In this document: one piece after another, positions 25,466 to 62,176 of the stretch | Numbering within the stretch: the stretch's first letter is position 1 | Layout: each line of letters starts with the position of its first letter | Virus record (IMG/VR): IMGVR_UViG_2541047802_000007 | DNA: 64,000 bases | Source of the DNA: a virus | Lineage: Duplodnaviria; Heunggongvirae; Uroviricota; Caudoviricetes | Strand: one strand, 5' to 3' | Program-made: the position numbers and the translations under genes | Notes under the pieces: generated by a model | The model's input: the letters and a program-made list of their open reading frames with translations, nothing else | What the model was told of the DNA's origin: nothing | Database searches by the model: none

Positions 25466-25552
25466 ATGATGAATTGTCCAAAGTGTGGTCATGCGGCACA
25501 CACAAGGAGCAGTTTTCAAGTAACTGAAAGCACCAAAGAGCGTTACTGCCAG
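25466..25552 (+). pseudogene. ogr: 5' fragment (29 codons) of ogr-like Cys4 zinc-finger late activator, truncated by the Mu-like insertion
   Basis: MMNCPKCGHAAHTRSSFQVTESTKERYCQ then TGA supplied by Mu end; resembles P2 Ogr N-terminus. Confidence 0.8.
25548..25552. repeat. 5-bp target-site duplication GCCAG (copy at Mu right end)
   Basis: Identical 5-mer at 62172..62176 immediately outside the other Mu end. Confidence 0.85.
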
Positions 25553-25645
25553 TGAAGCGGCGCACGAAAAGCGCGAAAGCGTTTCAAATAAAATACGAAA
25601 ACTCAAAACTTTCGCGCTTCAATTGAGACAGTTGTTTTATGTATG
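25553..25645. repeat. Mu right-end attR region (transposase binding sites)
   Basis: Terminal sequence resembles recalled Mu right end. Confidence 0.7.
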
Positions 25646-26092
25646 TCAGTTTCGTTTACATTTATATGTCTTAAAAATATTCACATCATCTCGGATATAA
25701 AGATTTTTTCCTGATTTATCAACGATAAAATACTTTATAACCGCAGGATTTCTAGTCAAAGCATAGAGATAATCAGTCCCTTTAATCTTTTCATCCTTGT
25801 CTTGTTCGTCAATTTGGCCTGTTTCTATCTGAGTGTATAGTTCACCTGTATCAAGGTCTGTCCATGACCCCATATCAACGCCCATATGCATACGAATACC
25901 GTGGCAGGTCCAAAAACCAGAGGCAGGGGCTTTATTTGCAACACTCTTATCTGGATCTATCCCGGCGGACCTTAAGACTGCATCAGCAGCCACTTCAGGA
26001 TCAAAATCTTTTTCTTGAGCGTGATTGACTGAGGAGGCGGTTAGTACGAATAGGCTGATGATGGTACTGATTAGCAATTTTGATTTTTTCAT
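25646..26092 (-). CDS. 148-aa predicted secreted/periplasmic protein (signal peptide), AT-rich; accessory gene next to Mu right end
   Basis: N-terminal MKKSKLLISTIISLFVLTASSVNHA signal-like sequence; low GC; lies between mom and attR. Confidence 0.6.
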   Translation of the reverse strand: MKKSKLLISTIISLFVLTASSVNHAQEKDFDPEVAADAVLRSAGIDPDKSVANKAPASGFWTCHGIRMHMGVDMGSWTDLDTGELYTQIETGQIDEQDKDEKIKGTDYLYALTRNPAVIKYFIVDKSGKNLYIRDDVNIFKTYKCKRN

Positions 26093-26136
26093 CTAATATG
26101 CTCCGTATGTGAGTAAATACATAAATTTATATGATA

Positions 26137-26874
26137 CTAATCAGAACTGCTTTTTGGGTATGGCTGAATCCTGAATAGTTTGGTATTTAGCCGCTTTCTT
26201 GCTCGCTTGTTCAGGAACCTGATGTAGCGATACTGATTAAATTTGTGCACCACGGCACGCTCTTTATTAGCCCGTAAATACATGCCTCGTTGTCCACCGC
26301 GCTTAATTGCGTTCATCGTTATCTCGTGATACCACTCACCATCCAGCTCGTAGAACGTGCTTTCATGGCTGCCAATAAAATCAAAATTTGACGCCTGATA
26401 CACAACGCCAGCACGTCCGCAGCGTTCGTCTGCAAAAGACTGAACCCACTCCACTGACGGATACAGTAACCTTATGGTTTTCAGTGCATAACTGATGGCC
26501 CGTGATTCAGAGTTGCGGGGCATGTCGTCGTGTAGCCACATGCGGTTCAACTCCATATAGCCCCGGTTATCCGTTTCAAGCACGACACGACGACCAGAGT
26601 TGGGGTTAAGGGCATATCCCCACTGGAGAACGCCAACCAGATCGCGTCCGCTGAATACTCCCAAGTGGAGGTAAGAGTTATTCACAAAACGGCGGGAATA
26701 GTGCTTTGTCTGAATAATTGTGCGGGCCAGCCAGCAGGATATGGTTTCAACGCGCAGCTCCTTTGAACCATAGCCAACAATCTGGCTTTCATACTCAATA
26801 ACGCACGGTTTCGTCAGAATGCGTGATTTCTTCTCTTTTCCCACAATGTTTCTCCGTGGGATGCTCGCAGGCAT
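26137..26874 (-). CDS. mom: Mom DNA-modification protein (true start probably internal to the listed ORF)
   Basis: Position directly downstream of and overlapping com; size class. Confidence 0.7.
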
Positions 26875-26983
26875 TCAGCATTATGATATGACGTTTGCAA
26901 CGCGGACACCTGATTTCAATGTGATCAAAGGAATCCGCCTTAAATAACAGTTTGTTGCAGTTTTTACAGCGAATTGATTTCAT
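26795..26983 (-). CDS. com: Com, zinc-finger translational activator of mom
   Basis: 62-aa product matching recalled Mu Com ([16 protein letters not shown]...). Confidence 0.85.
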
Positions 26984-27041
26984 CTCACCTCCTTTGCATC
27001 AATTCGCCACTATCTTAAAAAACATCGTGGGTTGAGTGTGG

Positions 27042-27659
27042 TTATTGGGGCATAATCGATCTGTATTGCCGATCGATTTGATTGATTCGATCGTCGTTTT
27101 CTATATGCGTTCGTTTCGCGGGGTGTTTTTTATACAGAGTTGACAGAGCCACATCATAGATCAATGCAACCTGCTTGCGGGGGATTCCTTGTACTAATAA
27201 ACGCCCGGCCTGCTCCCATTCCGCTTTGGTTAGTTTAGGTGGTCGCCCACCAATACGGCCTTTATTTCTGGCGGCAGCAAGTCCAGCCATCGTTCGCTCG
27301 ATGATTAGTTCTCGTTCCATTTCAGCCAGGGCACCCATAACGTGGAAGAAAAAACGCCCCATTGGAGAAGATGTGTCTATGCTGTCGGTAAGACTGCGAA
27401 AATTAATCCCTCGCTCCCGTAGTTCCCCGACGAGGGAAATCAGATGTTTCATGCTTCGCCCGAGGCGATCCAGTTTCCAGACAACCAGTGTGTCACCTTT
27501 TTGAAGGCGCTTTAACGCGCGTTTTAATCCAGGTCTGTCTGTCCTTGTTCCGCTTAATTTATCTTCAAATATTTGTTCACATCCTGCACAAACAAGAGCG
27601 TTTCGTTGCAGGTCTGTATTCTGGTCATTTGTTGATACCCTTACATAGCCAATCAGCAC
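27042..27659 (-). CDS. gin: Gin serine DNA invertase
   Basis: Product begins MLIGYVRVSTNDQ..., serine recombinase/resolvase family, adjacent to G segment. Confidence 0.9.
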   Translation of the reverse strand: MLIGYVRVSTNDQNTDLQRNALVCAGCEQIFEDKLSGTRTDRPGLKRALKRLQKGDTLVVWKLDRLGRSMKHLISLVGELRERGINFRSLTDSIDTSSPMGRFFFHVMGALAEMERELIIERTMAGLAAARNKGRIGGRPPKLTKAEWEQAGRLLVQGIPRKQVALIYDVALSTLYKKHPAKRTHIENDDRINQIDRQYRSIMPQ

Positions 27660-60893: not shown

Positions 60894-60900
60894 AGCGCAC

Positions 60901-61122
60901 CTAGTATCGAGACGGCCAAATATCTTGCGGTGTCATTCCCAGTGCATCTGCAATGATTTTCTCCGCTTTCGGATATCTCTTATCCAAAGCATTTTTTAAT
61001 GTTGAAGACGAAAGATGATTAGATCTTCCCAATTCAGCTAGTGACATATTGCGTTTTCGTAGCTCTGCAACGATGTCAGCTCTGTGCCAATCTTGGCGGT
61101 TAGTTCTTTTATTCATATGCAT
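60901..61122 (-). CDS. ner: Ner DNA-binding early regulator
   Basis: 73-aa product with Ner/Nlp motifs (DWHRADI...IWPSRY). Confidence 0.85.
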
Positions 61123-61307
61123 TTCATGTAATCCTTTCAGATTCCCCCGTGAGCTACGCTATAAAGTAGCTCACGGCATATCGTGCAATGTAGTGTGGAA
61201 TCATTTTTAAATCAATAGTGATTTGAAATGATTTATCATGATTTCATATAACAGCATGATTTTTATATGAATTTATTTTGTCTCTATTGAAATCACTAGG
61301 ATTTTAA
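61123..61307. promoter_or_regulatory. Early operator/promoter region between divergent c and ner (also the expected transposition enhancer region)
   Basis: AT-rich divergent intergenic region with 11-bp perfect inverted repeat ccgtgagctac/gtagctcacgg. Confidence 0.6.
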
Positions 61308-61832
61308 ATGATGTCTTTTGAAATCAAAGAATGGTTTAATGCGAAAGAGCTGGAAGGGATGCCTGGTGTACCAAAGTTGGCGACTAACATTACCAGGAAA
61401 GCTGTGGCGGAAGATTGGGTAAAACGTCAGCGTCACGGTGGGAAAGGTGTCGCTTATGAGTATCACATCAACAGTCTGCCAGAAGAAACACGCAGGGCCA
61501 TTAAAGGAGCCTCACTTTCTGATAAACCAGTGCATACATCAATCGTCTATACAGTTGATGAGAGGCTAATTTATGCAATGAGTTTCTTAACACCAGATGA
61601 GCAGGCCGCAGCAGTGGAGATCATTCGTGTAGCAGGGATTAAAGGACTTATGCCTACAATTGTCAGTAAAGATAAGGCATTAGAGGCATTAGGGATTACT
61701 GTGGAGCAACAGAAAACCCTGCAAACTCTTCAGGCATTACCACCGGAAAAAGTGAGAGAGATTTTGTCTCAGTATGAAGGCAAAGAACATAATTTCCCTG
61801 TAAGAGAAAACGATGTAAAGAAAGCTGTATAA
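61308..61832 (+). CDS. c: Repressor c (Mu-type winged-helix DNA-binding domain)
   Basis: 174-aa product; N-terminus resembles the DNA-binding N-terminus of the transposase (WxxAKEL..PGxPK). Confidence 0.8.
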   Translation: MMSFEIKEWFNAKELEGMPGVPKLATNITRKAVAEDWVKRQRHGGKGVAYEYHINSLPEETRRAIKGASLSDKPVHTSIVYTVDERLIYAMSFLTPDEQAAAVEIIRVAGIKGLMPTIVSKDKALEALGITVEQQKTLQTLQALPPEKVREILSQYEGKEHNFPVRENDVKKAV

Positions 61833-61999
61833 CAACCAGGTAATAGCTAAGACATAAACTTCACTCCAGGTAATTACATATGTAAGATACCCAAACAGTG
61901 ATGATTGTTTTTGACACACATCACTTGCTGAAAGCCTGGTTGTTACCGTTTTTGAAGCATTTTTGAAGCTGTACTTGAAATGATGCGTGAAGTAATTGC

Positions 62000-62171
62000 T
62001 TTTCGTGTCTTTAATGAATCAAAAGCTGTTTCCAACAATCTTTCGCGTTTCAAGATGTAACGGCTAAAATCTGTCCTACAGGCTTGCAAGCCCCACTAAA
62101 TCTAATCCCGCCAAATACCGAATAATCCAATGTCCTCCCGGTTTTTTTCGTACTTCAAGTGAATCAATACA
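62000..62171. repeat. Mu left-end attL region (transposase binding sites)
   Basis: Reverse complement reads TGTATTGATTCACTTGAAGTACGAAAAAAACCGGGAGGACATTGGATTATTCGG... Confidence 0.75.
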
Positions 62172-62176
62172 GCCAG
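62172..62176. repeat. 5-bp target-site duplication GCCAG (copy at Mu left end)
   Basis: Identical to 25548..25552. Confidence 0.85.

Follow-up and report, generated by a model that had tools for sequence, protein, structure and literature searches.

How a complete transposable phage came to lie inside another prophage, and whether such nesting is exceptional or merely what near-random transposition delivers, is the question raised by a stretch of tailed-phage DNA (Caudoviricetes) deposited as IMG/VR virus record IMGVR_UViG_2541047802_000007. The whole stretch of 64,000 nucleotides is referred to here as the window; within it, a Mu-family prophage of 36,619 bp interrupts a P2/186-like prophage (Table 1). 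An earlier reading made from the letters of the window and their translated open reading frames (ORFs), hereafter the sequence-only reading, had described a complete Mu-like element with exact ends and a 5-bp target-site duplication (TSD), nested in a P2-like prophage. Comparative analysis bears out this description, to which an empty site in Escherichia coli S88 lends further support, and refines it: the element is of the D108 type, differs from D108 in its G segment and by a short deletion, and took ogr as its target, while the host prophage resembles phage 186 and was probably defective beforehand. The nesting is an ordinary outcome of the near-random insertion of Mu, involving a well-known type of element and textbook biology.

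The ends of the element were placed by homology to phage D108, independently of the pentamers that flank them. The element opens at 25553 with TGAAGCGGCGCACGAAAA and closes at 62171 with ...ACTTCAAGTGAATCAATACA (in a fuller string, ...CTTCAAGTGAATCAATACA), and its map runs from c to mom on the minus strand. Over the 220 bp of the left end (the reverse complement of 61952-62171) it is identical to D108 attL at every position, and over the 148 bp of the right end (the reverse complement of 25553-25700) it corresponds to D108 attR with one extra A. The termini have the form 5'-TG...CA-3' (TGTATTG... and ...CGCTTCA), with several MuA-binding sites at both ends; three consensus cores were located per end, one of those at the left end with a single mismatch, and five of the six exact matches to the core AARYRCGAAAR in the window fall within the two ends. 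Once the ends had been fixed by homology, a chance match of the two flanking pentamers had a probability of about 1/1024. Both read GCCAG on re-inspection, which departs from CYSRG, the consensus of Mu target sites, at one of its five positions (PMC7350765). The element limits, the flanking repeat and the Mu-family termini claimed in the sequence-only reading are all confirmed by these comparisons.

Further evidence comes from the empty site. E. coli S88 (NC_011742) possesses the same P2-like prophage without interruption, and there the two flanks abut at a single GCCAG (CGTTACTGCCAGTGCC). Positions 1-25552 of the window agree with S88 at 25,551 of 25,552 bases and positions 62177-64000 at all 1,824, and the uninterrupted junction between tail gene D and ogr is also present in many other E. 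coli strains. Because the S88 site holds only one GCCAG, the pentamer was duplicated on insertion, and the pair in the window is a true 5-bp TSD, attributable neither to chance nor to misassembly. Together, the Mu termini, the 5-bp duplication, and the intact transposition and regulatory genes form the signature of MuA/MuB integration. The only difference from S88 in the 27.4 kb of flanking sequence (27,376 bases) is a T/C substitution at 21428, in the tape-measure gene, and this lone difference implies that the source strain is very closely related to the S88 lineage.

The target itself was revealed by in silico removal of 25553-62176, a check proposed in the sequence-only reading. The deletion restores an ORF of 72 amino acids (MMNCPKCGH...CQCQNINCG...) that matches the Ogr_Delta family (PF04606, E=9e-21) and carries cysteines at positions 4, 7, 30 and 35, in the arrangement CX2CX22CX4C. 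The insertion leaves 29 codons of this ogr/Delta zinc-finger gene on one side, with the first cysteine pair, and the second pair on the other; the TGA with which the Mu right end opens stops the 5' fragment at once. The prophage at ssrA in S88 (2.798-2.832 Mb) shares the cargo genes, the frameshift in replication gene A and the attR of the prophage in the window, and differs in having an intact ogr gene (72 amino acids), which is here split by the 36.6-kb Mu-like prophage. As a separate observation, a 49-amino-acid ORF called mechanically at 62159-62308 (plus strand) starts at a GTG within the Mu left end and continues, in frame, over the final 43 codons of ogr; lying downstream of c in the same direction, it could be reached by read-through transcription.

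Taken together, the best explanation, and one held with high confidence, is that a D108-type phage infected an E. coli related to S88 and that MuA/MuB transposition placed it in ogr, within a P2/186-like prophage already resident at ssrA. In such a history, a Mu-family phage of the D108 type would have entered a cell closely related to S88, and its MuA/MuB-mediated transposition would have proceeded by 5-bp staggered cleavage of the target within the ogr/Delta-like gene, followed by gap repair. The insertion was probably recent, since the flanks are nearly identical to S88, and it appears to have been a chance hit rather than a targeted one. The D108-type c repressor would keep the Mu-like prophage silent, and the element could still be able to transpose replicatively and to form particles. 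The P2-like prophage, on the other hand, would no longer be able to switch on its late genes, and the composite of ~71 kb, even if excised, would exceed a P2-sized head. The locus is a clean and fully resolved instance of Mu-type transposition in an E. coli lineage from nature: the ends are exact, a TSD is present, and S88 supplies an essentially isogenic empty site. It also illustrates how one mobile element can disable another, in this case through the splitting of the ogr late activator. Its uses could include teaching, reference in annotation, and recognition of the lineage of the source strain.

The identity of the element was established by comparison with known phages and gene by gene. 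Megablast against phage genomes placed it in the Mu/D108 group at 96-99% identity. Among the closest known phages is D108 (NC_013594 / GQ357916; Muvirus; 37,235 bp), with which the element is collinear from base 1 in the same gene order, at 96.6% nucleotide identity over the left 7.6 kb and 98.7-99.3% over the rest. When all 56 D108 proteins were searched by tblastn, 51 were matched at full length without stops, among them c (98.9% identity), B (99%), and ner, A, kil, gam, C, lys, T and gp56 (all 100%); S, U, U' and S' gave only partial matches, because the G segment differs. Mu (NC_000929) shares the architecture, the ends and the 5-bp TSD mechanism, and its head, tail and late genes are ~97-98% identical. 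However, the first 360 bases of the element are only 80% identical to Mu, bases 361-1466 (the stretch with c, ner, the operators and the 5' end of A) are unaligned, and Mu lacks gp56 and has a right end ~480 bp shorter (122 bp past the last aligned base, compared with 603 bp in the element). The immunity functions follow D108 instead, with an operator region between c and ner that is 99.5% identical. By its immunity region, left end and gp56, the element is accordingly classed as D108-type and not as Mu proper. The inverted gene order given in the sequence-only reading (c, ner, A, B, kil, gam, gemA, mor, C, lys, head and tail genes, G segment, gin, com and mom) stands in the comparison with D108.

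Several characters of the Mu family are evident from the sequence. They include a DDE transposase, MuA, with Mu-specific DNA-binding domains and an AAA+ partner, MuB; a 5-bp TSD at a non-specific site, with relatives occupying many different sites; and, all at full length, the c/ner switch, the Mor and C cascade, a G segment with Gin, and the com-mom module. Among individual relatives, Escherichia virus Mu_3F6 (LR595867) aligns along the entire left-hand 16.6 kb (100%) at 98.4% identity and along only 85% of the late half, whereas Yersinia phage vB_YpM_3 (MT374852; PMC10434027) matches 99% of the right-hand 20 kb at 97.8%, G segment included, and only 84% of the early half. The best match is vB_YpM_3 for the late half and Mu_3F6 or D108 for the early half, and, as neither vB_YpM_3 nor Mu_3F6 matches over the full length, the element reads as a mosaic of known Muvirus modules.

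Several results weigh against the proposed history and against an intact element. The gene gp14 is deleted, with the loss of ~0.57 kb between gp13 and gemA relative to D108, and gp6 and gp7, although full-length, are divergent from their D108 counterparts (75% and 40% amino-acid identity, respectively). The exact junction was not recovered elsewhere: in 5,426 complete E. coli genomes, megablast with the two junctions matched only their separate halves, the junction 30-mers were absent from GTDB representative genomes and JGI metagenome contigs, and exact-protein look-ups returned no match for the three junction-spanning ORFs. The nesting is known from assembled sequence, and inducibility and particle formation are predictions from sequence.

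The losses and divergence just described could indicate that the element is a decaying, non-functional Mu-like remnant rather than a complete viable phage, and decay is documented in other E. coli Mu-like prophages (an internal deletion in E24377A; IS5 and deletions in E94). Such a reading is nevertheless unlikely. Every other D108 gene is full-length without stops, including c, ner, A, B, mor, C, lys, the head and tail genes, gin, com and mom, and both ends and the operator region are conserved, as is, at the level of sequence similarity, the region of the strong gyrase site. Moreover, what was deleted is part of the early genes lying between gam and gemA, a stretch that established Mu genetics shows to be dispensable for plaque formation. 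The element thus appears to be complete and intact.

A second question is whether the choice of a prophage as target was more than chance, which can be approached through the frequency of such insertions. A MuA-like gene, taken as the mark of a Mu-like prophage, occurs in 89 of 5,426 complete E. coli genomes, and gp56 is indexed in 3,273 blocks of a public assembly collection. In a sample of Mu-like insertions from other E. coli, comprising 17 left and 10 right junctions (~27), 25 junctions lie in ordinary chromosomal genes and two (~7%) within other prophages. In E. coli STEC719 (NZ_CP041411), as in the window, a Mu-family prophage is nested in another prophage; there, however, the Mu left end lies in a P2-like tail-tube gene, beside a frameshifted sheath gene (locus L013, ~7169-7675). 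E. coli O166:H15 JNE21-009 (NZ_AP041814; loci L010/L011) likewise contains a nested Mu-family prophage, with a lambdoid tail-fibre region near ompW/trp as its target instead. The elements in these two strains are different Mu variants, with A genes at 95-96% identity. The sequence-only reading had called a phage inside a phage uncommon, which holds in relative terms, although at least two of the ~27 sampled Mu-like insertions are also in prophages, one of them P2-like. Its further suggestion that the locus is a natural experiment in prophage-prophage interference is weakened, both by nested cases elsewhere and by the frameshift in gene A that is already present in the Mu-free S88 prophage.

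It could be argued from the two further nested cases in so small a sample (STEC719 and JNE21-009), and from the PD-T7-1 and AbiU/AIPR-like defence genes carried by the host prophage, that insertion was non-random, either because Mu-family phages prefer resident prophages or because an ogr knockout was selected to lock a defence-carrying prophage in place. A related and broader conjecture is that Mu-family insertion into prophages is a recurrent route by which defence-carrying prophages become permanently immobilised, as exemplified by the three cases in ogr here, in STEC719 and in JNE21-009; if so, nested cases would be enriched or selected rather than random. The conjecture of recurrent immobilisation seems quite improbable, and non-random insertion is, if anything, still harder to credit. 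Several percent of E. coli chromosomes is prophage, and with that share a nesting frequency of ~7% is what near-random insertion would produce and was judged compatible with it. In addition, the host prophage had probably been disabled already by the gene A frameshift, which would leave little to select, and the target choice of Mu is documented as nearly indiscriminate (PMC7350765). A chance insertion into ogr by a D108-type phage therefore remains the preferred explanation.

The possibility that the arrangement is an assembly chimera, in which a Mu-like prophage from elsewhere was misjoined into the P2-like prophage, draws on the absence of the junction from every other public assembly and metagenome searched and on the dependence of the case on assembled sequence. 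It is extremely improbable: no misjoin would yield a perfect second copy of a pentamer that the otherwise identical S88 locus holds once, with an exact Mu terminus abutting each copy, and the junction flanks hold no repeat common to the Mu-like and P2-like parts that could have misled an assembler. An origin as a laboratory derivative of Mu or D108 from mutagenesis, conceivable in that both phages are classic laboratory tools, is improbable to the same degree in view of the only 96-99% identity to the reference genomes, the non-reference G segment, the deletion, the S88-like natural lineage of the flanks, and the similar natural variants found in many wild isolates.

Table 1. Coordinates of the D108-type prophage, its host prophage and their component features in the window (aa, amino acids; nt, nucleotide).
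Feature	Position	Strand	Evidence
P2/186-like prophage, 3' part of replication gene A to tail gene D	1..25547	+	99.996% identical to S88 prophage
26-bp tandem duplication (CCCCTTGGACTCGTGGCAATAACTGT x2), frameshifts replication gene A	348..399	+	Identical in Mu-free S88
ogr/Delta-like late activator, 5' fragment: 29 codons, then TGA from Mu end	25466..25555	+	ORF and Pfam
TSD, left copy GCCAG (5 bp)	25548..25552	.	Single copy in S88 empty site
Complete D108-type Mu-like prophage, 36,619 bp	25553..62171	-	96.6-99.3% nt identity to D108 outside G segment
Right end (attR); MuA-binding-site cores 25569-79, 25591-601, 25609-19 and terminal site ending ...CACGAAAA	25553..25630	-	Differs from D108 attR by one inserted A
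gp56, D108-specific, absent from Mu	25649..26092	-	100% to D108
com and mom	26140..26983	-	D108 gene comparison
gin invertase	27042..27659	-	99.5% to D108 Gin
Invertible G segment; 55-nt inverted repeats 27714-27768 and 30680-30734	27714..30734	.	Inverted-repeat and gene comparison
S'v, silent set	27764-28600	+	G-segment analysis
U', silent set	28604-29137	+	G-segment analysis
U, expressed set	29166-29693	-	G-segment analysis
S, expressed set; 511-aa protein currently in phase	29695-31230	-	G-segment analysis
Lysis, head and tail/baseplate genes (lys to gp48), all intact	31233..52208	-	D108 gene comparison
Homologue of Mu central strong gyrase site; Mu cut site maps to ~44808/44809	44708..44908	-	97.5% over 201 bp, Mu annotation
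gemA, mor, gp18-20, C (middle and late activators)	52306..54455	-	D108 gene comparison
Deletion junction, ~0.57 kb vs D108 (0.48 kb vs Mu); gp14 (and gp15 of Mu) lost between gp13 and gemA	54496..54539	-	Alignment and gene comparison
MuB AAA+ target-capture protein	57931..58866	-	99.0% to D108 B
MuA transposase, 662 aa	58908..60893	-	100% to D108 A; Pfam DDE_2 (E=2e-136), HTH_Tnp_Mu_1, HTH_Tnp_Mu_2, Mu-transpos_C
ner	60904..61122	-	100% to D108 Ner
c repressor, D108 immunity type, 174 aa	61308..61829	+	98.9% aa to D108 c; Pfam HTH_Tnp_Mu_1
Left end (attL); MuA-binding-site cores 62145-55, 62040-50, 62000-10	61952..62171	-	220/220 identical to D108 attL
TSD, right copy GCCAG (5 bp)	62172..62176	.	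Sequence inspection and S88 empty site
ogr 3' fragment with second Cys pair of CX2CX22CX4C	62177..62308	+	ORF and Pfam
attR core of P2-like prophage, 46-bp ssrA 3' end; transfer-messenger RNA gene 62941-63303	62940..62985	-	S88 comparison

The host prophage can be assigned to the P2 family (Peduoviridae) from the window together with its S88 counterpart. Of the left 25 kb, 83% matches P2-like Klebsiella and E. coli phages, and the S88 annotation shows a P2-type gene order (portal, terminase, scaffold, capsid ... sheath, tube, tape measure, D, ogr). The S88 copy has a 186-type CI/CII/Fil control region as its lysogeny module and lies at the ssrA 3' end, bounded by a 46-bp direct repeat. The window begins within replication gene A, with ~7.8 kb of prophage upstream of it; the integrase and the CI/CII module, which fall beyond the limits of the window, were seen in the S88 copy only. 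The best phage-database matches of the P2-like part are Klebsiella phages; Klebsiella as the bacterial host was ruled out, as the ssrA/smpB flank and the prophage are 99.9-100% identical to E. coli S88. Measured against the 804-aa protein of Klebsiella phage KP12, gene A is frameshifted and gives a product of 695 aa, and PGAP marks the S88 gene as a frameshifted pseudogene. That this is an annotation artefact was ruled out by the KP12 alignment, which shows a real 26-bp tandem duplication. Because the frameshift is common to the Mu-free S88 prophage, the host prophage was probably already defective before the Mu insertion.

The G segment, which holds two sets of tail-fibre and assembly genes, is divergent from that of Mu and D108. 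Its variable tail-fibre genes show 51-80% protein identity to those of Mu/D108, while at the DNA level they are near-identical to those of phages isolated on Yersinia pestis (vB_YpM_3). The sole D108-like variable stretch lies on the gin-proximal side and is inverted, which places the segment in the opposite orientation to the reference. The divergence suggests that the receptor range of the element may differ from that of the reference phages. Outside the G segment, a further D108-like peculiarity is gp56, which gave no match in a Pfam search.

The host prophage also carries several genes of possible defensive function. A strong 469-aa homologue of the anti-phage system PD-T7-1 (PADLOC E=1e-196) is encoded at 1660-3069 on the plus strand, between the DinI-like/replication region and the portal gene, a position equivalent to the old/tin cargo hotspot of P2; it has no Pfam match. 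At 11935-13635, surrounded by P2-like tail and baseplate genes and on the opposite (minus) strand, lies a 566-aa AbiU-like abortive-infection gene of the AIPR family (Pfam AIPR E=2e-25; PADLOC AbiU E=2e-24). Finally, an ORF of 160 aa at 62335-62817 (minus strand), with no Pfam match and only a weak PADLOC match to PDC-S48 (E=2e-7), is annotated in S88 as BRCT domain-containing; it lies between ogr and the attachment site at ssrA and could be another cargo gene.

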